Assembly (NCBI GenBank): GCA_965197645.1
Contig: OZ240219.1
Coordinates: 1,472,001 to 1,536,000 of the forward strand
DNA from: Dehalococcoidia bacterium
GTDB lineage: Bacteria > Chloroflexota > Dehalococcoidia > Plut-88900
Reading direction: 5' to 3'
Length of the DNA: 64,000 nt
Part shown: positions 1-26,890 of the stretch, in pieces
Numbering within the stretch: position 1 is the stretch's first letter
Layout of the letters: the number at the start of each line of letters is the position of its first letter
Notes under the pieces: model-generated
Told to the model about the DNA's origin: nothing
What the model saw: only the letters and a program-made list of their open reading frames with translations
The model's database searches: none
Made by a program: the position numbers and the translations under genes

Positions 1-252
1 GTCCACGGAGCCATGCCCAATGTCAGCGATGACCTGAGGTGGAGCTTCGATCTACGCTACAACCCCACGGGCCAGGACACGGGCCGGCCATGGTTCCCTG
101 GCTTCGTGGCGAGGAGCCGGGCCAACCCCGACTCTAAGCTGAAGGACGCGGTGGTATGGGCGGAGATGTGGAGAGAGGCCCGGTCCCAGCTGGCACGAAT
201 GGAAGCCCCCAGGTTCAACCGGTGGGACCCCAACGATCCGATGTGCGCTTGA
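1..252 (+). CDS. Phytanoyl-CoA dioxygenase (PhyH)-family Fe(II)/2OG dioxygenase, C-terminal part (truncated by window edge)
   Basis: Frame is open from base 1: VHGAMPNVSDDLRWSFDLRY fits the H-x-S/A-x-x-N-x-S-x-x-x-R distal His/Arg motif of the PhyH family. Confidence 0.7.
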   Translation, partial: VHGAMPNVSDDLRWSFDLRYNPTGQDTGRPWFPGFVARSRANPDSKLKDAVVWAEMWREARSQLARMEAPRFNRWDPNDPMCA

Positions 253-422
253 ACCCGACGCAGCTCCTATGCCCTCGGGGAACGTTGCAGCCGGAAGATC
301 GTTGAAACTTGTGACCCGGCTAGGCGATGCACGGCGCCACCTTATCCGGCATTGCCGTCCTGTTGAAGGCTAGAACCATCGAAGCTAGAATAAGGGCCTA
401 ACCTGGAGGAGGGATACCCGCT

Positions 423-1373
423 TTGGCCGATCCCCGCGATATAGCTGAGAAGGTAATTGATAACGTCGAGAAGGTGATCATAGGCAAGAAGGAAGAGGTG
501 ACCCTTGCCCTGATCACCCTCATGTGTCACGGCCACGCTCTCATTGACGATGTGCCCGGTGTGGGCAAGACGATGCTGGCAAGGAGCGTTGCCACGTCGA
601 TAGGGTGCAGCTTCAAGCGCATCCAGTTCACGCCGGACCTTCTGCCCAGCGATATCACCGGCGTTTCTATCTATAATCAGCAAACTACCCAGTTCGAATT
701 CCGCCCCGGGCCCGTCATGGCCCAGGTGGTCCTGGCCGACGAGATAAACAGGGCTACGCCCAAGACCCAGTCGGCGTTGCTGGAGTGCATGGAAGAGCGG
801 CAGATAAGCGTGGACGGGGTCTCCTATAACATGCCGGCCCCCTTCATTGTGCTCGCTACCCAGAACCCGGTGGAGTACGAAGGCACCTTCCCCCTGCCGG
901 AAGCACAGTTGGACCGGTTCATGATGCGAATCAGCCTGGGCTACCCCTCGCCGGACGAGGAGATATCGATAATAGACAGCCAGAGACACGCTCACCCCAT
1001 CGACAAGCTGGAGGCTGTAACCGAGCAGGAAGAGCTGCTGTCGCTGCAGGCCGAGGTCGGCAAGGTCTACGTGGACGAACTGATCAAGAAGTACATCGTC
1101 TCTGTTGTCGAAGCGTCCCGTAATCACCCGGACGTCTACCTGGGGGCCTCTCCCAGAGGGTCCCTGTTCCTGACCAGGACGGCCCAGGCCAAGGCCTTCC
1201 TCGAGGGTCGGGACTTCGTGCTTCCCGACGATGTCAAGACACTGGCGGCCCCGGTGCTGGCCCATCGGGTCATCATCAATCCCACCCTGCGCTCGCAGGA
1301 TGTTACAGGGAACACAGCCATCTCCAACATTCTGGAAACGGTCCCCGTTCCCGGCGTAAAAGTAAGAAGCTAG
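423..1373 (+). CDS. moxR: MoxR-family AAA+ ATPase (copy 1)
   Basis: Walker [50 protein letters not shown]; GGAGGA SD upstream of TTG. Confidence 0.95.
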
Positions 1374-1383
1374 GGTCCTTCAA

Positions 1384-2628
1384 ATGAGCGGCCTCAAGCT
1401 TAGGGGGTTCGTGGATTTCTTCACCAGGCTCAAGGTGCTGGTGATCCTGCTGGCCATCATCGCCTTCATGGCGATATCCACCAACTACGGTCTCTACTAT
1501 CGATTGGCGTACGTGTTCGCCCTCCTCCTGGTCTTCAGCTTCATCTGGACGTGGCTGAACGGACGGTGGGTGAAGGTGAACGTGGAACGAAGCGTCAACG
1601 CCATCGGAGTAGGGGGCATGCTGGAGGAGAGGATAACCGTATCGAACCCCTCCAGGTTCTTGCCGGTAGCCTGGATAGAGGTGCGGCAGACTTCGGACAT
1701 GCCGGGTCACCAGCAGGGGATGGTGATCAGCCTGCCCAGAGCCAGCCAGGGGACGTGGAAGCTGAACACCCGGTGCCGCCAGCGGGGCAAGTTCACCCTG
1801 GGACAGCTGAGCGTGATCAGCAGCGATCCGATGGGCCTTTTCAGAGTGTCCCGGGTGCTGGGAGAGCGGTCGGATTTTCTGGTGTACCCGGCCATGGCCG
1901 ATCTTCCCTCCCTGGACATGCCCGTCAGCGATCTTCCCGGCGAAGCTCCCATGCGGCAATTTACCAACGTGGTCACCCCCAGTGCCAGCAGCGTGCGAGA
2001 CTACGCCCCCGGCGACACTTTCAACCAGATCCACTGGAAGTCTACTGCTCGGATGAGCAAGCTGATGGTGAAAGAGTTCGACCTGGAGCAGTCGACCAAG
2101 CTGTGGGTCCTCCTCGATATGCAACAGAACGTGCAGGCGGGGCACGAGGAGGAGAGCACTGAGGAATACGCCGTTACCGCAGCGGCATCGATAGCCCGGA
2201 AGTATCTGAACGCGGGATTGGCTGTGGGACTGATAGCCCACGGAGACCAGGACTGGCTGGTCCAGCCCAACCACGGCACAGGCCAGCTGCCCTTGATCCT
2301 GGAGAGCCTCGCCCTGATTCGGAGCGAAGGGACCCGCAGCCTCAAGGAGGTACTCAACCTAGAGGACCACTGGTTCGACCGCTACTCCAGCGTCTGTATC
2401 CTCACGCCGACCCAGGACGATTCCTGGGTCTACTCGTTGAGGGGGTTGATCCAGCGGAGAGTGAAGACATCGGCGGTGCTGCTAGAGTCGCAGACCTTCG
2501 GCGAAGGCGATGGCATCTTGGACCTGGTCGGCAACCTCGCAGCCCATCGCGTACCCAACTGTGTGGTGCAAAAGGGCGATTCCATAACCGAGGCACTGGA
2601 CTTCGGGCCCAGGACGGGGCAGAGGTAG
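1384..2628 (+). CDS. DUF58 domain protein (vWA-like MoxR partner), copy 1
   Basis: N-terminal TM segments; VRDYAPGD..IHWKSTAR..LMVKEF signature; follows moxR. Confidence 0.9.
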   Translation: MSGLKLRGFVDFFTRLKVLVILLAIIAFMAISTNYGLYYRLAYVFALLLVFSFIWTWLNGRWVKVNVERSVNAIGVGGMLEERITVSNPSRFLPVAWIEVRQTSDMPGHQQGMVISLPRASQGTWKLNTRCRQRGKFTLGQLSVISSDPMGLFRVSRVLGERSDFLVYPAMADLPSLDMPVSDLPGEAPMRQFTNVVTPSASSVRDYAPGDTFNQIHWKSTARMSKLMVKEFDLEQSTKLWVLLDMQQNVQAGHEEESTEEYAVTAAASIARKYLNAGLAVGLIAHGDQDWLVQPNHGTGQLPLILESLALIRSEGTRSLKEVLNLEDHWFDRYSSVCILTPTQDDSWVYSLRGLIQRRVKTSAVLLESQTFGEGDGILDLVGNLAAHRVPNCVVQKGDSITEALDFGPRTGQR

Positions 2629-2634
2629 GATAGG

Positions 2635-5223
2635 GTGGAGGACACAGGAAAGCTCCAGCTCCAGTTCCAAAGTGACGCCACCTTCAAGGAGGTGGGTGAC
2701 GAGTTCGAGGACCCCAGGGACAAGACTCCCTTCCCGTTAGCCATCCGCGAGGGCTGGCTCACCTTTGTCATCCTTCTGTTCCTGCTTTTCTGCGTGGTGT
2801 GGTCCGTCCAGGCCGCGGAATGGGTGGAGGACCTGCCATCGATCATATTGATAGGGTTGTTGGCGGCTTCGGCGGGGTTGGGAGTGTCGAAGATCCGCTT
2901 CAACGGCCTTCCCCTGTTCCTCAGCGGCCTCGTGCTGTGTTTCATCATGGTCCTGTGGCAGACCTGGTCGCTGACCATCGACGAGGGCGTATTCGGCAAA
3001 ACGGCGGATCTCGTCGATCGGTTCAGGATATGGGTCTCCGCCATGCAGACTGGGGGCATCAGCGCCGATCCCGTTCCCTTCGTAACCATAATAGTGACCC
3101 TGACCTGGCTGCTAAGCTTCTATTCGGCCTGGTTCGTTTTTAGAGGACTGGGGTTGTGGCCGGTGATAATACCCACGGCCATCGCGCTTTCCCTGAACCT
3201 CCTCTACCTGCCGCGGGAATATTGGATATGGTTCTACCTGTACATCCTTGCCGGGCTCCTTCTGGCGATGCGGCTGCACCTGGTAAAGAGGCAGCTCAAC
3301 TGGAGCAAGGACAAGCTGCCCTACTTCAAGAGGGCCCATTCATCCTTTCTGATTGCCGCCGCCATACTGGGCTCTCTGGTCATAGTGGTCACCTGGGCTC
3401 TGCCCGGCGTCGACTTCTCGGTGGGCTACCTGAGGAAGAACTGGTCGGTGCTGAGCACGCCTTGGAAATCGATGGAGACGGAGATGGGCAGGGTCCTGTC
3501 CTTCCTGCCCGCCAAGAAGCCGTTCACCATCTATCGTTTCGGCGAGGCGTTCCCCTTCCGGGGGGCCAGCAGCCTGGGACAGCACGTGGCAATGAGGGTC
3601 CAGTCCAACAGGCCCGAGTACTGGAAGGCAGAGACCTTCGACGTGTACACCTCCAAGGGTTGGCTCACAGGCGATAGGGCCGAGTTGGCCGACAGCCTGA
3701 TCCCCGATAACGCACTGTTGACTTACGTATCGACCAACAGGGTAGACCTGGCCGTCAGGCTAGGAGTCGGGACCGACTCGATATACACGGGCGGAGTGCC
3801 GCTCTACAGCACTGTGGAATTCACGCTTGAGGTGGCTCCGCCAATGAGCTTTATCATCGATCTGGACGATCCCTCCGGTGACGAGCTTCTGCCCCAGGAC
3901 CTGAAGGGCGTGGCCGAGTCGTTCCGAGAAGAGGCCAGGCAGGGAACGTTGACCTTCACGGAAGAGGGGTCTCTGAGGCTGCTGCCCAAGGGCAATGAGA
4001 TCATCGACATTGTCCGGGACGGGAATCGGGCATCCAAGATCGAGGTCGCCAGGTCGCCTCCCAATCCGCCCGACATCACGGCCATGAGGCCCGTACAGGA
4101 CCTGGACCCGCGGGAGTCCTACCGAGCGGTCTCCTACACGTCGGCGGCTACGGAAGCGATGCTCAGGTTTGCCGGAACGGACTACCCAAGCTGGGTTACC
4201 GACAGGTATCTGCAGCTCCCCGACGAGCTACCGGACCGGGTAAGGCGGTTGGCCGTCGGTCTGACGCCCGATAGCCACCACCCGACAGCCTACGATAAGG
4301 CGGTCCAAATAGAGTCCTGGCTCCGCAAGCAGATGTTCTACACCACCGATATCGAGCGGGTGCCCGAGGAAGCCGACGGCGTCGACCATTTCCTCTTCAC
4401 CACCAAGCGGGGATACAGCAGCTACTACGGCTCCGCTATGACGGTCATGCTGCGGGCCGTTGGGATACCCGCCCGGCTGGCGGTGGGCTACTCCACGGGT
4501 GAATGGGACGAGGCCCAGCAGATTTACGTGGTGAGGAGCGCCAACGCCCACGCCTGGCCCGAGGTGTATTTCCCCACCTTCGGTTGGATATCCTTCGAAC
4601 CGGTTCCCATTTATGCCCCTATTGTCAGGGGCGGGATCATACAGGACCGGTTCTTCACCGACACCGCCGGGGGCGGTCCGGGAGGCCCCATACGGAACCC
4701 AGCCCAGCTCCAGGGCGCCGACCCGCCTGTACTGCCCAGAAACGTGGATCTGCCCGAAGAGGCCAGTATGTTCGTTTGGCTGGTGCCCGCTATCTTGGGC
4801 GGCATGGTGATAGTGATCGCCGGGGTATGGTACTGGTATAACCGTGGCCTGCGTCGGATCGGGTACCCTTCCCGCGTCTACGGCAAGATGGCCAGGTTGG
4901 CGGCCATCGGCGGCTATGGGCCCAGACCGTACCAGACACCCATAGAGTACGGCTACGCCCTGGCCACGGAGATGGATGTTATCGAGGGGCACGTCGAGAG
5001 AATCTCCGAGGCTTACGCGCACACCAAGTACCGCTCTCCCGATTCCCGCGCGTTCATGAAAGCGCCCTCCCGGCCCATAGACCCCGCCGAGGACCCCGAG
5101 TCGATTAAAGAGGTGGCCGTCGATGACAGGGAGACTTTGGGACAGGCCTGGCGCTCGCTGAGGCGGCCGCTGCTGTGGTGGTCACTGAAGAAAAAGCTGG
5201 CCTTCTGGAGAGTCGGCTGGTGA
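2635..5223 (+). CDS. Multi-pass membrane transglutaminase-like protein (TgpA-like, probable C-terminal DUF4129)
   Basis: About 8 N-terminal TM helices, YWKAETFDVY, GYSSYYGSAMTVMLRAVGIPARLAVGY, AHAWPEVYFPTFGWISFEP, then QTPIEY; canonical Cys is Ser. Confidence 0.88.
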   Translation: MEDTGKLQLQFQSDATFKEVGDEFEDPRDKTPFPLAIREGWLTFVILLFLLFCVVWSVQAAEWVEDLPSIILIGLLAASAGLGVSKIRFNGLPLFLSGLVLCFIMVLWQTWSLTIDEGVFGKTADLVDRFRIWVSAMQTGGISADPVPFVTIIVTLTWLLSFYSAWFVFRGLGLWPVIIPTAIALSLNLLYLPREYWIWFYLYILAGLLLAMRLHLVKRQLNWSKDKLPYFKRAHSSFLIAAAILGSLVIVVTWALPGVDFSVGYLRKNWSVLSTPWKSMETEMGRVLSFLPAKKPFTIYRFGEAFPFRGASSLGQHVAMRVQSNRPEYWKAETFDVYTSKGWLTGDRAELADSLIPDNALLTYVSTNRVDLAVRLGVGTDSIYTGGVPLYSTVEFTLEVAPPMSFIIDLDDPSGDELLPQDLKGVAESFREEARQGTLTFTEEGSLRLLPKGNEIIDIVRDGNRASKIEVARSPPNPPDITAMRPVQDLDPRESYRAVSYTSAATEAMLRFAGTDYPSWVTDRYLQLPDELPDRVRRLAVGLTPDSHHPTAYDKAVQIESWLRKQMFYTTDIERVPEEADGVDHFLFTTKRGYSSYYGSAMTVMLRAVGIPARLAVGYSTGEWDEAQQIYVVRSANAHAWPEVYFPTFGWISFEPVPIYAPIVRGGIIQDRFFTDTAGGGPGGPIRNPAQLQGADPPVLPRNVDLPEEASMFVWLVPAILGGMVIVIAGVWYWYNRGLRRIGYPSRVYGKMARLAAIGGYGPRPYQTPIEYGYALATEMDVIEGHVERISEAYAHTKYRSPDSRAFMKAPSRPIDPAEDPESIKEVAVDDRETLGQAWRSLRRPLLWWSLKKKLAFWRVGW

Positions 5224-19903: not shown

Positions 19904-21160
19904 TTGAGCACGACTGTAGACACCGTACCGGCCACAAACAGACCTTCCTCCTACCGCTGGGTGGTAATAGTCACCTGGATGATCTCCCATATCTGGGGGT
20001 TTATCGCGGTAGAAAGCCTCGGGTTTCTGCTTCCCAGCATGCGGGACGAACTGGGCCTCGAACCTATTCATGAGGGGCTGCTGGGAGCCGCACCTCTCAT
20101 CGGCGTGTTGTTCCTTGCGATAGCGTCCGGCATGGTCATGTCCAGGTTCAGCCCAAAACGCCTCACCACTATCACGCTGCTCGTCGGTACCGGACTGCTG
20201 GTCTTTCAAGGCTGGGCCCCGACCTTTGCGGTGCTGCTGGTGGGCCGCCTCCTCTACGGCATCTCCATCGTTGCCAGAGAGCCGGCCCGCGCCTTGCTGA
20301 TAAGGCAATGGATCCGACTCAGGGAGATAGTGGTAGCCAACGCCTCCATGAACCTCCTGTGGGGCATCAGCTCTATAGCGTTTATCCTCATCCCCCAGAT
20401 TCTCAAGCTTCTGGATGATAGCTGGCGGGACACCCTTTACCTGTTCGCAGCGATCTCGTTGGGGATGACCTTCGCATGGCAGATACTGGGTAGGGAGCGC
20501 GTAAACCCGGAATACTCCGGTGACCCCGCGTCTAGAGAGAGACCCCAGATAACCGCCGTCCTGAGATACAAGGAGCTGTGGTTGATCGGCATGGGAGTGG
20601 TGGGAATAGACATGGCGTTCGGAGCGCTGGCGGTATTCTGGCCCAGCTACATGCTGGACACCTACGATTTTTCCCTGCAGATGAGCGCCATAATGTGGGC
20701 TGTCAGCGGGCTTACCTCCGCTGTATCGGCGCTGGGAGTAGGCCTGATAGCTCAAAAAACGGGCAGACGAAGACCATTTCTAACCGCCGCAGGGATATTG
20801 ATGACCGTCACTACTATAGGGCTGCTCCTTACTGGTCACCTTCCCTATCTGGTATTGATATCCATCTCCCAGGGGTTGGCGTTTTCGATATTCCCCATTC
20901 TCATGACCATCCCCTTCGAGCTTCCCAACATAAAGCCCCGGGAAATAGCAGTGGCCAACGGGTTCATCGAGACCTTCTTCGTGGGCGGCGCCATGCTGGG
21001 TCCGATAGTGGCGGGCGGAATCCAGCAGATAACCGGTGATCAGAGACTGGCCCTGATGATCACCAGTGTCTGCGCGCTGACCCTTACGGCCACCGGGTTA
21101 CTACTGCCCAGGCAGGTGGACCAGATAGGGGGCCGGCAGCCCGCGCCCCAGACCGCCTAG
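19904..21160 (+). CDS. MFS transporter
   Basis: 418 aa with about 12 hydrophobic segments, SRFSPKR and QKTGRRR loop motifs. Confidence 0.88.
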   Translation: MSTTVDTVPATNRPSSYRWVVIVTWMISHIWGFIAVESLGFLLPSMRDELGLEPIHEGLLGAAPLIGVLFLAIASGMVMSRFSPKRLTTITLLVGTGLLVFQGWAPTFAVLLVGRLLYGISIVAREPARALLIRQWIRLREIVVANASMNLLWGISSIAFILIPQILKLLDDSWRDTLYLFAAISLGMTFAWQILGRERVNPEYSGDPASRERPQITAVLRYKELWLIGMGVVGIDMAFGALAVFWPSYMLDTYDFSLQMSAIMWAVSGLTSAVSALGVGLIAQKTGRRRPFLTAAGILMTVTTIGLLLTGHLPYLVLISISQGLAFSIFPILMTIPFELPNIKPREIAVANGFIETFFVGGAMLGPIVAGGIQQITGDQRLALMITSVCALTLTATGLLLPRQVDQIGGRQPAPQTA

Positions 21161-22176
21161 ATCGCCCGGACGGCCTTGATGGTCTTCTTGAGCTGAGCTT
21201 CGTCCTCTGGATCGTCCTTGGGAAGAGGCAGCGAGGTCTGGGTGGCCCAGGCGCCGAAACGAGCCTTGACGGCATCGGCGATCTTGTCGTAGGTGCCGAT
21301 GGCGGAGAAAGCCTCCACCATTTCGTCGGTAATGAGGCCGACCATATTCTTCCACTCGCCGTTGAGGGATAGCTGATGAAGCTCTCCGGTCAGGTGTCCC
21401 CAGCCGTGTATGTCGAACACCGGGTTGTAGGTGCGGGTGGACCCGTAAAAGGACATCGACTCCCTGATCTGCTCTACCCCCCGGGCCACGTCCTCATCGG
21501 TGGCGCCCGTAATCACGAACCCACCCCCGGTAATCTCCAGGTCCTTGATCGATCTATCGGACTTCTCCAGCCCCTTTTCTAGGTTGGGCAGCACCACCTC
21601 GTCCACGTACTTGCCGGTGCAGAACCCGTGGAGCCGCAGGCTATCGCATACCTCGCCGGCCGACCGGATGTTGTATGTGTTCACCGCGGAAATTCCTATG
21701 GGAATGGTGGGATGATCGATGGGTCCGGGATCGAAGAAGGGGGTCATCAGGTTGAAGTTGTAGAACTTGCCCTGGAAGTTGAGCGGGGTGCGGTTCTGCC
21801 AGCAGTCCCAGATGACCCTCAACGATTGGACGTACTCCTTCAACCGGGGGCCCGGCGAGTCCCAGGGCACGCTGAACCGGCGCTGAATATGCCCCTTGAC
21901 CTGCGTCCCCAGGCCCAGTTGGAACCTGCCACCGGAGAGGTCTTGAATGGCCCACGCCTGATAGGCCGTGGTCATAGGGCTGCGGGGAAACGCCAGCGCT
22001 ATGTCCGTGGACAGCTGCACGTTGCTGGTGTGCTCGGCGGCGAGGGTGGAGGACAGGAAGGGGTCCAGCTTGATCTCGGGCACGGTGACTCCGTCGTAGC
22101 CCAGGTCCTCTATCCGCTTGGCCTCACCGGCTATATTCTTCAGACTGTCGTCACCTACGGAGGCGTAAACTTTCAT
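21157..22176 (-). CDS. LLM-class F420-dependent oxidoreductase (TIGR03617-like)
   Basis: E-x-x-x-DPF, IALAFPRSPM, SGGRFQLGLGTQVKGHIQRRFS, FYGSTRTY. Confidence 0.9.
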   Translation of the reverse strand: MKVYASVGDDSLKNIAGEAKRIEDLGYDGVTVPEIKLDPFLSSTLAAEHTSNVQLSTDIALAFPRSPMTTAYQAWAIQDLSGGRFQLGLGTQVKGHIQRRFSVPWDSPGPRLKEYVQSLRVIWDCWQNRTPLNFQGKFYNFNLMTPFFDPGPIDHPTIPIGISAVNTYNIRSAGEVCDSLRLHGFCTGKYVDEVVLPNLEKGLEKSDRSIKDLEITGGGFVITGATDEDVARGVEQIRESMSFYGSTRTYNPVFDIHGWGHLTGELHQLSLNGEWKNMVGLITDEMVEAFSAIGTYDKIADAVKARFGAWATQTSLPLPKDDPEDEAQLKKTIKAVRAI

Positions 22177-22194: not shown

Positions 22195-22806
22195 TTACTC
22201 GTAGACCTCCAGCATCAGGTCCGTGCATTCATCGCCGTTTATGGAATCCAGGTCCCAGGAGCAGGAGGTCACCACGACAAGCAGGTCCTTGAGAGCTTCC
22301 AACAGCACGTAGTCCCCCGGCTTGGCAGGAGAGGTCTTGGACTCCCAGTGGCCCTCCAGGTCCACGATGGGGGTATTCTGGAACAGGTTCACGGGGTGGG
22401 GTGGATGTGCGGGTGTGAAGTCGAACTCCTCCAACACCTCATTCAGGTTGTCCCGGCAGTTGCGGTGGTCGGACGAGGCGCCCACGGCCTCGAAAAGGGC
22501 GGGACTTCAGGCATTCAGGAGGAAATCGTGCACTCCTACGGTATCCTCCTCCAAATTGAGTAGGGGGTCCAGCTTGTTGCTGTAGAGGGGCTGGCCGAGG
22601 ATGGGGTAGATGCGACGCAGCTGGCTCCAGCTGCCATCGGGCGATAGGTACTCTCCCGGATCGTCTAGAACGAAGGCGAACAGATCGCCTATCTGCTGGC
22701 CATGGGTGTTGACGACTTTGACCCTCTGGCCCTTCTTGGCCAGTACGCCACCGCCGTGATAGGCGGGCACCAGTCGTTCCGATAACAGTTTTCTTCCGGT
22801 GGTCAT
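22195..22806 (-). CDS. DUF1989 (urea carboxylase-associated / CgdA-B-like) protein with in-frame TGA at codon 100; candidate selenoprotein
   Basis: ORFs 22507..22806 and 22195..22485 are in the same frame. Read-through gives 203 aa: ...GQQIGDL...GVHDFLLNA-[TGA]-SPALFEAVGASSDHRNCRDNL...PVNLFQN...PGDYV...VTSCS. GGAGG SD upstream. Confidence 0.85.
22450..22506 (-). promoter_or_regulatory. Putative bacterial SECIS hairpin
   Basis: mRNA 3' of UGA: A-GUCCCG-CCCUUUU-CGAGGC-[CGUGGGC]-GCCUCG-...-CGGGAC. Two 6-bp stems; the G-rich loop starts 20 nt after UGA. Confidence 0.55.
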
Positions 22807-22926
22807 GGGCGTCCTCCCCTCCTGAATATCAAGCAGCTAGAGCGGTGTCAACGATACCGTCGAGACACGAGATGTGTCAAACACCGCCCTCCATGCCCGA
22901 CTGCTGTCACCAGGCCGATGGGGCAC

Positions 22927-23115: not shown

Positions 23116-24102
23116 ATGGTAGAAACCGACACACAATCCATCGCTGCCACCGCCAACCGGCTGTACGAAAACATCGGGCGGGTCATCGTCGGCAAACGGG
23201 AGGTGGCAGAGCTGTTCCTGGTAGCCACGCTGTGCGAGGGCCACGTGCTGATCGAGGACGTGCCGGGCATCGGCAAGACCATGCTGGCCCGTTCCGTGTC
23301 TCGCTCCTTGGGCTGCTCCTTCCGGCGCATACAATGCACCCCCGACCTGCTCCCCTCCGATATCACCGGCACCTACATATACAACCAGCAGACCAGCGAG
23401 TTTCAGTTCCGACCCGGCCCCATTTTCGCCCAGGTGGTGCTGGCCGACGAGATCAACCGGGCCACTCCCCGCACCCAATCTGCGATGCTGGAGGCCATGG
23501 AGGAAGGCCAGGTGACGGCGGAGGGCGAGACCAAGGCTCTGCCAAAGCCGTTCCTGATAATGGCCACCCAGAACCCCATCGAGCTGGAGGGCACCTTCCC
23601 GCTGCCCGAGGCCCAGCTGGACCGGTTCCTGCTGCGAGTCAGAATGGGCTACCCAACCGAGGAGGACGACCAGCTGATTCTCGACCGGTTCGCCGAAGAT
23701 AATCCCATACATGCCCTGGAACCTGTAATCTCGGCCGAGGAGCTGACCGGATTGCAGACCAGCTGCCGCGGGGTAAGGGTAGGCCCCGAGGTCCGGCGGT
23801 ACGTAATCCAGCTTGTCCATGCCACCCGAGAGCATCCCCAGGTGGAGTTGGGCGCCAGTCCCCGCGCCATGCTGGGCATGTTCAGAACAGCCCAGGCCCT
23901 GGCCGCCGTCCGGGGGAGCGACTACGTTATCCCGGACCACGTCAAGTACCTGGCTCCCTTCGTGCTGGAGCATCGGATCATCGCCGATGCCCAGAGCCAC
24001 ATTCGCGGGCTTACCGCCTCGGGTATCCTGCGCGAGGTGCTGGACTCGGTGCCCGTTCCCGTGGAAGACGAGGAGGGCGTCGCGTCGGAAGCGGGGCGCT
24101 AG
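23116..24102 (+). CDS. moxR: MoxR-family AAA+ ATPase (copy 2)
   Basis: [52 protein letters not shown]. Confidence 0.95.
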   Translation: MVETDTQSIAATANRLYENIGRVIVGKREVAELFLVATLCEGHVLIEDVPGIGKTMLARSVSRSLGCSFRRIQCTPDLLPSDITGTYIYNQQTSEFQFRPGPIFAQVVLADEINRATPRTQSAMLEAMEEGQVTAEGETKALPKPFLIMATQNPIELEGTFPLPEAQLDRFLLRVRMGYPTEEDDQLILDRFAEDNPIHALEPVISAEELTGLQTSCRGVRVGPEVRRYVIQLVHATREHPQVELGASPRAMLGMFRTAQALAAVRGSDYVIPDHVKYLAPFVLEHRIIADAQSHIRGLTASGILREVLDSVPVPVEDEEGVASEAGR

Positions 24103-24104
24103 AG

Positions 24105-25346
24105 GTGCTGAGCGGCGCCTGGATCAGCTTTACCCTGGCGCTGGTCCTGATAGGGGTGCTGACCCAGCAGACCCTCATACTGCTGGCGGCCCTCCTTTTC
24201 TTTTTCACCTCGGGAGTAGCCAGGCTGTGGACCAGATATGCCCTGGACCGCATGGAGTACAAGCGCAGCTTCAGCGTAAACCGGGCCTTCTTCGGCGAGA
24301 CCATCAACCTGGAACTGGGCATAGCCAATCTCAAAATCCTGCCCGTGCCCTGGCTTCACATCCGGGACGAGGTCCCCGAGGAGCTGACCTTCCTGAAAGG
24401 CGTCACCATTCCTACCCACAAACCCTCCCGCCTGACGCTGCCCAACTTCCTATCGTTGGGGTGGTACCACCGCATAACCCGCCGCTATCCCATCCAGTGC
24501 CTGAGGAGGGGTTATTTCTCCTTCGGTCCGGCCACCATCCGCTCCGGCGACCTTTTCGGCTTCTTCAACAAGCAACTCACCGAGGAGAAGGTTGACCGCC
24601 TGCTGGTCTATCCTCGCATCGTGCCTCTGGAGAGCCTCGACATCCCATCTCGAAACCCCTTTGGCGATATGAAAGTGAGGCGGCACCTCTTCCAGGACCC
24701 AGTCCGGGTGGCGACAATCAGGGAGTATCAGCCTGGCGACCCGTTGAAGCATATCCACTGGAAGGCCTCGGCCCGATTGAGGCGGCTCCAGTCCCGCGTC
24801 TTCGAGCCCACGACGGCGGTGGACCTGAGCATCTTTCTCGATCAGACCACCGGGGATGACTCCTTTTTCGGCGCTCCCGTACAGCAGGAACTGGAAACGG
24901 CCGTGCTGGTGGCAGCCTCGGTGGCCAGCTACGCTGTCAACAATGGGTACCGCGTTGGCCTGTACGCCAACGAGCTGTACGCCAACACCAGGCGGCTGAT
25001 GAAGCTCTCTCCATCGGACCACCCGGACCAGCTGACCCTGGTGCTGGAGGCCCTGGCCCAGGTACGGGGCCTCCCCTTCGGTGGGCTGGACGAGATGTTG
25101 GACCGGGAGGCGCGCTCGCTGCCATGGGACAGCACAATGGTAGTGATTTCGGCGTCGCCGCAGCGGTCCTCCATGGCCACATTGCACCGGTACCGTCGCG
25201 CAGGCCGGCGAGTGGCCCTAATCCTCATAGGTGAGCGGGCCGGTCGCATCCAGCCCAAGGGAATTCCCGTCTACCACGTTTCGGACCAAGTCTACTGGCG
25301 AGAGGTAGAGTCGCTGCGGCTGACGCCTCTGGGAGATTCGACCTAG
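24105..25346 (+). CDS. DUF58 domain protein, copy 2
   Basis: IREYQPGDPLKHIHWKASAR, N-terminal TMs; follows moxR. Confidence 0.9.
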   Translation: MLSGAWISFTLALVLIGVLTQQTLILLAALLFFFTSGVARLWTRYALDRMEYKRSFSVNRAFFGETINLELGIANLKILPVPWLHIRDEVPEELTFLKGVTIPTHKPSRLTLPNFLSLGWYHRITRRYPIQCLRRGYFSFGPATIRSGDLFGFFNKQLTEEKVDRLLVYPRIVPLESLDIPSRNPFGDMKVRRHLFQDPVRVATIREYQPGDPLKHIHWKASARLRRLQSRVFEPTTAVDLSIFLDQTTGDDSFFGAPVQQELETAVLVAASVASYAVNNGYRVGLYANELYANTRRLMKLSPSDHPDQLTLVLEALAQVRGLPFGGLDEMLDREARSLPWDSTMVVISASPQRSSMATLHRYRRAGRRVALILIGERAGRIQPKGIPVYHVSDQVYWREVESLRLTPLGDST

Positions 25347-25348
25347 CC

Positions 25349-26890
25349 ATGCGCCAGGATCGTCCTCTTCTGTGGCTTCCCAACGCCGAGCGGATCATGC
25401 CGGTCCTGGTAGTGTTCGCCGAGGTGCTGTGGCTCTATCCGTGTGTGGTCTGGATTAGCGGTTGGGACATCCTCGGCCTGGAAGAGCCGCCTCTAACCCT
25501 GGTTGGGGCCCTGATGATCGCCATTGGGGCGGAAAGATTGCCGAGACTGTTCCTCGCCCTGGGGGGACCGCTGGAGCGGGCGCGTGTTACCTCGTTGTTC
25601 GGCGTCGTCCTCTTGCTGGCCCTGGTCGTGCGGCTGGACTCCGGGGGAGGCTACATACTGTGGGACACCGGTTGGAGAGAGTACGCGCAGGACAACGTGG
25701 TCCTCATCGTCGGCGGACTGGCCTTGGGAGCCGTCCTCGCCTACCGGGGCCTCTCGATGGGCGTGGAGCTGCCTTCTTTTCATAGCCTGTATCGCAGGTT
25801 CGTTGTGGGGGCTGTATCCCTGCTCGTGCTCATGGTGACGTGGAGCGTCACTGCCCACGCCGAGGGGTTCTCCTCCATTCCCGCCTCCACCGGTGTCTAC
25901 CTGGCCTCCTACTTCTTCATGGGGCTTCTCGTCCTCGCCCTTTCCCACCTTCGCACCTTCAAAGAGACGATGGCCGAGCACCAGGAGTCGACCAGCTTCC
26001 TGAATCGATGGTCTCTCTCGCTGCTGCTGGGCGTTCTAGGCCTCATCGTAGCTGCATCCCTGGGCATCGCCAGCATCTTCTCCTTCGATCTGGCCGCCCT
26101 GATGCTAAGCCCCTTCAAGGCCCTGGCGGAGTGGATACTCATCGGCTTCACCTACGCAGTCATTCTGCCCTTGGCCCTAGCCGTCGGAGGGGTCCTGTGG
26201 ATCATAAACCAGCTCCGCGGAAGCGGAGATGAATTCGATCCGCCGGATCTGTCCCCGCTTCAGGACCCGGAAACCATCGAAGATCCTACCGCAGACCTGC
26301 TCCCGGGAGCCGAGATGGTCGAATCCGGAGGCATCCCCCCGGAGCTGGTGCTGGCCTTGAAGTGGGGACTGTTTGCCATAGTCGCCATCGTTGTGTTCTT
26401 CTTCCTGGCCAGGGCACTGGCCCGCTATCGCAAGGGCCGTTCCGACGACGAGGTCGAAGAGGTAAGCGAGTCGTTGCTGTCCTGGTCCGTCTTCGGTGCG
26501 GACCTCCGAATCTTCCTGTCCGGCCTCTTCGACCGCTTCCGCAAACGGGCCGACGAAGCGGTGGCATCGGTCTCTCCTCCCCTTTCCGTAACCGATATAG
26601 AAGACGACGTCGAAAGCCAGTTCACCACCCGCGAGATCTACCAGGGCATGCTGTGGGAGGCCCGCCTGTCCGGTCTCCCTCGACTCCATCCGGAGACGCC
26701 GTACGAGTACCAGGGAAAGCTGGAACGCCATCTTGCAGACGACGTCGAGCTCCATGCCATCACCCAAGCCTATGTGGACGAACGCTACGGTGGCGTCCAG
26801 ACCGATTCGCAGCGCCTAAGGTTGTTGAACATGATGTGGCGTCGGCTCCGGTCGATGCTGAGAGGGCTGAGAGACCCGCCCGAGCCCTGA
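25349..26890 (+). CDS. Multi-pass membrane protein with C-terminal DUF4129-like domain
   Basis: About 9 TM segments; C-terminal REIY..GLPR..ETPYEY..ITQAYVDERYG; third gene of the MoxR operon. Confidence 0.8.
   Translation: MRQDRPLLWLPNAERIMPVLVVFAEVLWLYPCVVWISGWDILGLEEPPLTLVGALMIAIGAERLPRLFLALGGPLERARVTSLFGVVLLLALVVRLDSGGGYILWDTGWREYAQDNVVLIVGGLALGAVLAYRGLSMGVELPSFHSLYRRFVVGAVSLLVLMVTWSVTAHAEGFSSIPASTGVYLASYFFMGLLVLALSHLRTFKETMAEHQESTSFLNRWSLSLLLGVLGLIVAASLGIASIFSFDLAALMLSPFKALAEWILIGFTYAVILPLALAVGGVLWIINQLRGSGDEFDPPDLSPLQDPETIEDPTADLLPGAEMVESGGIPPELVLALKWGLFAIVAIVVFFFLARALARYRKGRSDDEVEEVSESLLSWSVFGADLRIFLSGLFDRFRKRADEAVASVSPPLSVTDIEDDVESQFTTREIYQGMLWEARLSGLPRLHPETPYEYQGKLERHLADDVELHAITQAYVDERYGGVQTDSQRLRLLNMMWRRLRSMLRGLRDPPEP

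Follow-up and report, generated by a model that had tools for sequence, protein, structure and literature searches.

A probable selenocysteine codon at an invariant metal-ligand cysteine position in a DUF1989 protein of a Dehalococcoidia bacterium

The metal site of proteins related to the Pfam family DUF1989 is known from trimethylamine N-oxide (TMAO) demethylase, for which the cryo-electron microscopy report describes a conserved 3Cys:Zn2+ motif consisting of C285, C301, and C365, aggregation of the protein when any one of the three ligands is changed from Cys to Ala, and coordination of the zinc by the substrate oxygen, with no iron site (PMC13619132). According to a second report, the equivalent residues of the Methylocella enzyme are C263, C279, and C343, and zinc-binding cysteines are also carried by the crystal structures 3SIY, 3ORU, and 3DI4 (PMC12560246). 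Here we analyze a DUF1989 gene of a Dehalococcoidia bacterium (assembly GCA_965197645.1, contig OZ240219.1), located at positions 22195 to 22806, minus strand, of a 64,000-nucleotide (nt) stretch of that contig (1,472,001 to 1,536,000, hereafter the window). The codon for the first of the three metal ligands is UGA. Comparative evidence indicates, with a probability of roughly 0.84, that this is a genuine selenoprotein gene encoding a full-length DUF1989 enzyme in which UGA 100 would be decoded as selenocysteine (Sec).

TMAO demethylase (Paracoccus, PDB 9q59, 9q5a, and 9q5l; Methylocella Tdm) shares a homologous core domain with the window protein, and the ligand positions of the two align one to one. 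It differs in being approximately 790 amino acids (aa) long with three domains, one of them a GcvT-like tetrahydrofolate-binding domain, and in having only Cys as ligands, whereas the window protein is a stand-alone protein of 203 aa. The closest solved relatives, by sequence (E 3.5e-35) and by fold, are 3oru/3siy (TM1040_0329) and 3di4, which differ from the window protein in that all of their ligands are Cys.

The complete gene comprises 203 codons, one of them UGA, and its sole internal stop is the TGA at 22509-22507 (codon 100); there is no frameshift and no second stop. The half open reading frames called with translation table 11, at 22507-22806 (99 aa) and 22195-22485 (96 aa), are parts of one frame, and the sequence bears out an earlier sequence-only reading of the window, made by a model without database searches, which had described two half-frames separated only by this TGA and a 203-aa read-through product. 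The read-through product matches Pfam DUF1989 (PF09347) with an E-value of 3.5e-39 and 134.6 bits (cut-off 27) over profile positions 3-168 of 168. Its AlphaFold model has a mean pLDDT of 87.4 and a pTM of 0.87, and Foldseek superposes the model on the DUF1989 crystal structure 3siy_A with a TM score of 0.89 over 201 columns (E 6.8e-20, 36% identity). Because the read-through model folds confidently and superposes on 3siy_A, the two half-frames represent a single domain cut midway. The motif H93-D94-x5-U100 and the two further cysteines, Cys117 and Cys182, are all present as that reading had claimed: the UGA codon, proposed to encode Sec at the first 3Cys:Zn2+ ligand position, lies at 22507-22509, the Cys117 codon (TGC, second ligand position) at 22456-22458, and the Cys182 codon (TGC, third ligand position) at 22261-22263, all on the minus strand.

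The TGA column is occupied by Cys in each of the other homologs aligned. Among family members of the order to which the window genome belongs, 28 of 30 have Cys at this position and the remaining two are the TGA genes discussed here. Cys is likewise found in all 22 full-length orthologs of 41-71% identity (alignment A1), in 73 of 74 high-scoring segment pair rows, drawn from 70 loci in genomes and metagenomes, the last row stopping short of the column, and in 43 of 43 such rows from 39 named genome loci. One of the Cys rows, L064, belongs to genome G394, which is marked as unpublished; no conclusion rests on it. In scans of metagenomes and genome contigs, which exclude records close to the window genome, every match was at most 57% identical to the window protein and every one had Cys. 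Only 11 columns are invariant in a family-wide alignment of 26 sequences (A4), and C100, C117, and C182 are among them; C117 and C182 are invariant in A1 as well. A phmmer comparison with the TMAO demethylase chain 9q59_A (E 1.3e-16) places residues 100, 117, and 182 opposite 285, 301, and 365. The proposal that the Sec residue aligns with an invariant Cys thus held in every homolog alignment examined, and the metal-binding role that had been assigned to the two further conserved cysteines agrees with the 3Cys:Zn2+ site seen experimentally in relatives (PMC13619132, PMC12560246). The three-Cys ligand set of DUF1989 is complete in the window protein only if the UGA is read as Sec (or Cys).

The TGA is preserved in independent assemblies. 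Logan contigs of three sequencing runs from three studies, X1, X3, and X5, span the whole gene, X1 being possibly the source sample. The X1 contig has no differences and no indels relative to the window gene and is the same at 22507-22509; the X3 and X5 contigs have 11 and 10 differences, respectively, no indels, and no difference at 22507-22509. The sequence-only reading had proposed a check of raw reads at 22507; the contigs of all three runs have TGA there. Seventeen unique sites are variable in the gene, 14 of them synonymous and three non-synonymous; 24-30% of random changes are expected to be synonymous, which gives a neutrality P of approximately 7e-7 to 1e-5. On the 3' side of the TGA alone, five sites are synonymous and two non-synonymous (P 0.01-0.03), and both halves of the gene thus show purifying selection. 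The 99-aa N-terminal half is represented in databases by five distinct sequences of 89-99% identity, located on separate contigs and with a common end residue; for the more distant of these variants only the end position is known, the type of stop codon not having been seen. Nine database variants of the C-terminal half are without any lesion. A simple nonsense mutation was to be expected, according to the sequence-only reading, if close relatives all had Cys and the TGA were unique to this assembly. The TGA is not unique, being kept in the X3 and X5 contigs, which come from two other studies. Orthologs at 41-71% identity do all have Cys, but the TGA is kept within the gene's own lineage; since it is conserved there and recurs independently elsewhere, the argument from relatives does not apply.

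The recurrence was found within the same order. Only 42 of 401 sampled genomes of the phylum, counting the window genome, have any DUF1989 copy; the 12 genomes of the window's order (G000-G011, G000 being the host of the window gene) together have 63 copies, 3-10 per genome. Exactly two of these 63 copies bear a stop, the window gene and a copy in genome G001. The G001 copy is 40% identical to the window protein, and its TGA is in the same column. Its 441-aa neighbor is 76-79% identical in 11 sister-genome loci that have TGC or TGT at this position; as this neighboring gene is common to the 11 Cys loci, the G001 TGA gene is a syntenic ortholog of the Cys forms. SelB was found in G001. An exhaustive HMMER search with the N-terminal half returned a G001-type representative of 99 aa, whose cluster contains seven distinct 99-aa sequences that are 94-99% identical. 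These variants occur on 29 contigs, the longest of 18,195 nt, and all end just before the Cys column; four are named by NCBI "urea carboxylase-associated family protein" (e.g., MCH7997460.1). The G001-type lineage is thus a relative of the kind that the sequence-only reading had suggested looking for, with TGA at the same codon and a conserved downstream frame. Sequence comparison indicates that this second UGA in the same column is independent of the window lineage. The distribution is narrow, being confined to two small lineages of one order.

Other candidates for stop-bearing copies were rejected. P0263, a 94-aa protein of a third subfamily that ends right before the Cys column, was dropped as evidence, being encoded on a 542-nt contig and having a full-length cluster-mate. 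Seven short proteins from a search with the family alignment were C-terminal fragments; the length window of that search, 30-95 aa, excludes halves of 96-110 aa. A locus of genome G296 (L184, G296:C69:135300-136900) has its stop at another column together with frameshifts, and is a pseudogene, and a partial DUF1989 match with stops in G379 is a fragment. A further degraded DUF1989 copy (L149, OZ220745.1:2379261-2385596) is a partial match interrupted by three stops. L149 and L184 show what genuine DUF1989 pseudogenes look like.

The host genome, a single 3.21-Mb contig, is equipped for Sec incorporation: SelA (449 bits), SelB (347 bits), SelD (380 bits), and tRNA-SeC were all found, and the selD gene itself contains an in-frame TGA at the classic position. 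The sequence-only reading had asked for selA, selB, selC, and selD, and each gene or its product is present. A genome-wide TGA scan, in which a codon-usage coding signal was required on both sides of the codon, yielded 211 raw candidates, of which 43 passed the filters, and recovered all three expected controls. Nineteen of the 43, picked by recognizable motifs, were taken to Pfam, and in 16 genes of known families a Pfam domain spans the TGA: GrdB (three), GrdA, UGSC (two), and DsbA (two), with AhpC/Prx or thioredoxin-like proteins (four), ArsC, rhodanese, CMD, and OsmC making up the remainder. These 16 genes and the separately verified selD gene formed a reference set of 17 for the analysis of the selenocysteine insertion sequence (SECIS). 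One candidate, L163, turned out to be a pair of neighboring genes and not a selenoprotein. The selenoproteome of the host genome (loci L164-L181 of G000) is large for Dehalococcoidia.

Two further genes of this genome were noted in the course of the scan. L182 (G000:C1:2857715-2858800, minus strand) encodes a zinc-type alcohol dehydrogenase with an in-frame TGA at 2858689, within the spanning ADH_N/ADH_zinc_N domains and in the motif G-V-[TGA]-H-S-D-L-H; we take this site to be the catalytic-zinc Cys of medium-chain dehydrogenases/reductases. Its downstream hairpin is weak, with no match in the geometry-restricted test described below. L176 (G000:C1:1709612-1710487, plus strand) encodes a member of the CoA-transferase family (PF01144, residues 9-223); its in-frame TGA at 1709918 (codon 103) lies within the domain, and its geometry-test hairpin of -6.4 has the loop GGC at +26. 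It is possibly a further unusual selenoprotein.

Bacterial SECIS elements are stem-loops directly 3' of the UGA; their apical loop lies some 16-37 nt away and contains a G. The window gene has a SECIS-like apical hairpin at 22474-22492 (minus strand), evident from the sequence and from RNAfold, with a 6-bp stem formed by CGAGGC (22492-22487) and GCCUCG (22479-22474) and a 7-nt G-rich loop, CGUGGGC (22486-22480). In the RNAfold minimum-energy structure it is enclosed by a predicted outer helix, GUCCCG (22505-22500) with CGGGAC (22455-22450), spanning 22450-22505 on the minus strand. The upper stem begins 14 nt past the last base of the UGA, at +17 counted from its U, and the loop begins at +23, so that both the loop position and its G content agree with the bacterial elements. 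Both stems and the loop are as the sequence-only reading had described them; the distance that it gave, a start 20 nt from the codon, is wrong.

The 17 validated selenoprotein genes have in common a compact stem with a small, mostly G-initial loop starting about +20 to +30 from the UGA. The geometry test that was applied accepted only perfectly paired stems, 5 bp or longer, whose 3-8-nt loop begins between +19 and +31. Of these 17 genes, 12 have such a hairpin at a dG of -6 kcal/mol or below, eight at -8 or below, and seven at -8 or below with a G early in the loop. The corresponding numbers among 124 Cys-DUF1989 homologs are four, three, and three, and among 3000 genomic Cys codons 12.6%, 5.5%, and 3.2%. 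In this test the window gene reaches -8.7 kcal/mol (rank 4 of 126) and the G001 gene -9.6 (rank 3 of 126). Rank 5 is held by L028 (G000:C1:725278-725871, minus strand), the host genome's Cys paralog that is the syntenic ortholog of the G001 TGA gene, in which a TGC codon is followed by an 8-bp stem with the loop GAC at +24. L028 and the G001 gene have 70% protein identity, yet the 20 nt of the hairpin segment are the same in both. For the 10 remaining orthologs of the G001 gene the geometry score is zero. The simplest reading, we infer, is a SECIS common to two sister genera of which one copy is now Cys, and the L028 hairpin could be a fossil SECIS or else a structure older than Sec. An Rfam match to Guanidine-III at 22447-22503 (plus strand), antisense and within the coding sequence, was discarded as almost certainly noise (12.9 bits against a gathering threshold of 36, E 1.3); it is mentioned because relatives in the DUF1989 family take part in guanidine metabolism.

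Several observations count against Sec decoding. The Sec form is rare and young, with two of the 63 copies in the order; no other full-length stop-bearing copy occurs in the 401-genome sample of the phylum or in 79 metagenome and genome loci, and the nearest full-length relatives, at 71% and 63% identity, have Cys. The hairpin region is not more stable than shuffled sequences (z = 0.17), an unrestricted scan of hairpin energy places the window gene, at -9.9 kcal/mol, approximately 34th of 88 homologs and thus mid-rank, and a search of 22380-22560 against Rfam gave no SECIS family. In the two near-identical relatives that could be compared, only loop base 22480 varies (a synonymous change in run X5), with no change in the stem. 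The geometry criterion was set after the data had been inspected, and its result is therefore supportive, not decisive. The hairpin has a geometry that fits the selenoprotein genes of the genome, but as evidence it is weaker than the sequence-only reading had implied. RNA support consists of one 191-nt contig from one metatranscriptome (run X11), for which DNA carry-over is possible; it covers 22213-22403 only and is therefore silent on read-through.

One alternative is that the gene is a young pseudogene, in which a nonsense mutation turned TGC or TGT into TGA at the Cys codon and was inherited by a small clade, with decay still pending. Cys codons are a single step from TGA, the orthologs at or below 71% identity all have Cys, the Sec form is limited to close relatives of 89-99% identity, the five other DUF1989 paralogs in the genome could cover a loss, and the stability of the hairpin is unremarkable. 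A pseudogene is nevertheless improbable, given that the same invariant column was struck independently in two lineages only 40% identical, that several variants in each lineage keep both the stop and an intact downstream frame, and that the excess of synonymous over non-synonymous changes (14 against 3) extends to the 3' side of the stop. Real DUF1989 pseudogenes, moreover, look different, with a stop elsewhere and frameshifts in G296 and a mere fragment in G379.

An intact downstream frame would be accounted for equally well if the UGA were read through as Cys or Trp by a near-cognate or mis-charged tRNA, yielding a full-length enzyme without selenium. We consider this slightly less probable again: a dedicated Sec system is present and serves no fewer than 17 other genes, the geometry of the downstream hairpin is the one seen in those selenoprotein genes, and an inefficient stop has no obvious advantage over TGC, which would give Cys directly. 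Gene callers in many assemblies predict just two products, a 99-aa N-terminal and a 96-aa C-terminal fragment, the latter starting at GTG 22485, and such fragments might be made separately and assemble or act alone. This split-gene arrangement is the hardest of the three to sustain. The invariant first ligand would be missing from both fragments, and Cys-to-Ala replacement at that ligand causes TMAO demethylase to aggregate; GAGG stands only two bases before the GTG, a spacing that is probably too short for ordinary ribosome binding; X3 and X5 show no change in the seven codons that separate the TGA from the GTG; and an equivalent internal start in the G001 gene would have to be a coincidence.

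Under the selenoprotein reading, the UGA at codon 100 would be decoded as Sec by the host SelA, SelB, SelD, and tRNA-Sec, with SelB presumably binding the intragenic hairpin about 20 nt downstream of the UGA and so aiding decoding. The Sec residue would substitute for one of the three active-site cysteines that hold the metal in characterized relatives; since it replaces the first ligand Cys, the predicted site consists of Sec and two Cys around one metal ion. By analogy with the relatives described above, that metal would be zinc, and Sec could tune the metal reactivity or the oxidation resistance of the site. The product might be handed to the F420-dependent oxidoreductase encoded by the next gene.

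That gene encodes an F420-dependent luciferase-like monooxygenase (LLM)-class oxidoreductase (21157-22176, minus strand; PF00296 E 2.4e-56; TIGR03617 390 bits, cut-off 278). The stop codon of the DUF1989 gene ends at 22195 and the ATG of the LLM gene is at 22176, a gap of 18 nt. The F420-type neighbor recognized in the sequence-only reading is substantiated by the TIGR03617 score above cut-off. The two genes are probably co-transcribed and make up a two-gene unit between a convergent major facilitator superfamily transporter and a divergent MoxR/DUF58/DUF4129 cluster. The LLM protein was rejected as a conserved functional partner, since no LLM gene adjoins the homolog at any of 99 other loci. 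On the 5' side of the DUF1989 gene, on the minus strand, a purine-rich Shine-Dalgarno-like stretch (22812-22823) can be read 5 nt before the ATG, and a promoter-like site (TTGACA, 18 nt, TATCGT; 22851-22880) lies about 45 nt before the start codon, which is only suggestive, with one site found against 0.6 expected in shuffled sequences. The divergent cluster, at 23116-26890 on the plus strand, is the trio commonly associated with MoxR, in which consecutive genes encode a MoxR-type AAA ATPase and proteins of the DUF58 and DUF4129 families.

Orthologs have an M19 dipeptidase, a gamma-glutamyltranspeptidase, or an M20 peptidase as neighbors, and no neighbor is universal across the ortholog loci examined. 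In a subgroup of nine ortholog loci (L128, L130-L136, and L142, about 1-3000 of each; approximately 49% identity to the window protein), three tandem genes of the arginase/ureohydrolase family, one of them checked against Pfam, are found directly upstream, which suggests guanidino-compound metabolism in that subgroup. Five Cys orthologs (P0014, P0018, P0099, P0115, and P0121) are longer at the N terminus by 30-50 residues, in which a twin-arginine-like S-R-R precedes a hydrophobic stretch, a feature of their sequences that suggests export; the window protein is without this extension. Equivalog models do not give the window protein a more specific name: it scores 70.5 bits against a cut-off of 284.7 for TIGR03424, 44.4 against 205.95 for TIGR03425, and 111 against 1100 for the TMAO demethylase model NF053776, and no model of NCBIfam release 20.0 claims it. 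Because the CgdA, CgdB, and TMAO demethylase cut-offs are not reached, it is filed as a general DUF1989 member, and is probably, by analogy with its relatives, a metal-dependent enzyme whose substrate is a small nitrogen compound.

Selenoproteins are almost always treated as redox catalysts. If the present interpretation is correct, Sec at a Lewis-acid zinc, in a solved fold with substrate complexes, would offer a clean natural test of what selenium does, with its effects on bond length, pKa, Lewis acidity, metal selectivity, and oxidation resistance all open to study there. Ready sets for comparing Sec with Cys are provided by the G001 gene and its 11 syntenic Cys copies, and by the window gene and its Cys orthologs of up to 71% identity. 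In public databases each of these genes is entered as a pair of truncated "urea carboxylase-associated" proteins, and the family is therefore invisible to selenoproteome counts and to the functional annotation of uncultured marine Chloroflexota. To the wider proposition, in which DUF1989 is an unrecognized selenoprotein family whose Sec ligates a catalytic non-redox zinc, arose or was retained at least twice in one order, and left a fossil SECIS in a Cys paralog, we would give about an even chance; if true, it would, together with the zinc alcohol dehydrogenase L182, point to a broader, undescribed use of selenium in tuning zinc sites.

A full-text literature search, which left key selenoprotein catalogs outside its coverage, returned no paper that ties DUF1989 or urea carboxylase-associated proteins to selenocysteine or selenoproteins. 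The BSepDB paper places Dehalococcoidia among the richest selenoproteomes, and its main text, which does not include the family table, contains none of the terms "DUF", "urea", and "zinc" (PMC13326102). This is apparently a selenoprotein family that has not been described previously.

Within the same Pfam family and at the same stand-alone size, the nearest named proteins are CgdAB, UAAP1, and UAAP2, whose chemistry concerns small nitrogen compounds; we take TIGR03424 and TIGR03425 to represent the CgdAB carboxyguanidine deiminase and the urea-amidolyase-associated proteins UAAP1 and UAAP2. A link to CgdAB is that some orthologs of the window gene adjoin arginase-family genes. The window protein differs in scoring far below the equivalog cut-offs and in its surroundings, there being neither a urea or guanidine carboxylase gene nor a gene for a heterodimer partner nearby. 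To our knowledge, Sec has not been reported in CgdAB-type proteins. Sec as a direct ligand of a catalytic metal is familiar from formate dehydrogenase H (Mo/W) and [NiFeSe] hydrogenase (Ni). As would be the case in the window protein, Sec replaces a metal-binding Cys in these enzymes and the UGA is decoded via an intragenic SECIS; the decoding route is the standard bacterial one, and it is the chemical position that is unusual. Formate dehydrogenase H and [NiFeSe] hydrogenase are long-known selenoproteins with redox-active metals, whereas the homologous DUF1989 site holds a non-redox, Lewis-acid Zn2+.

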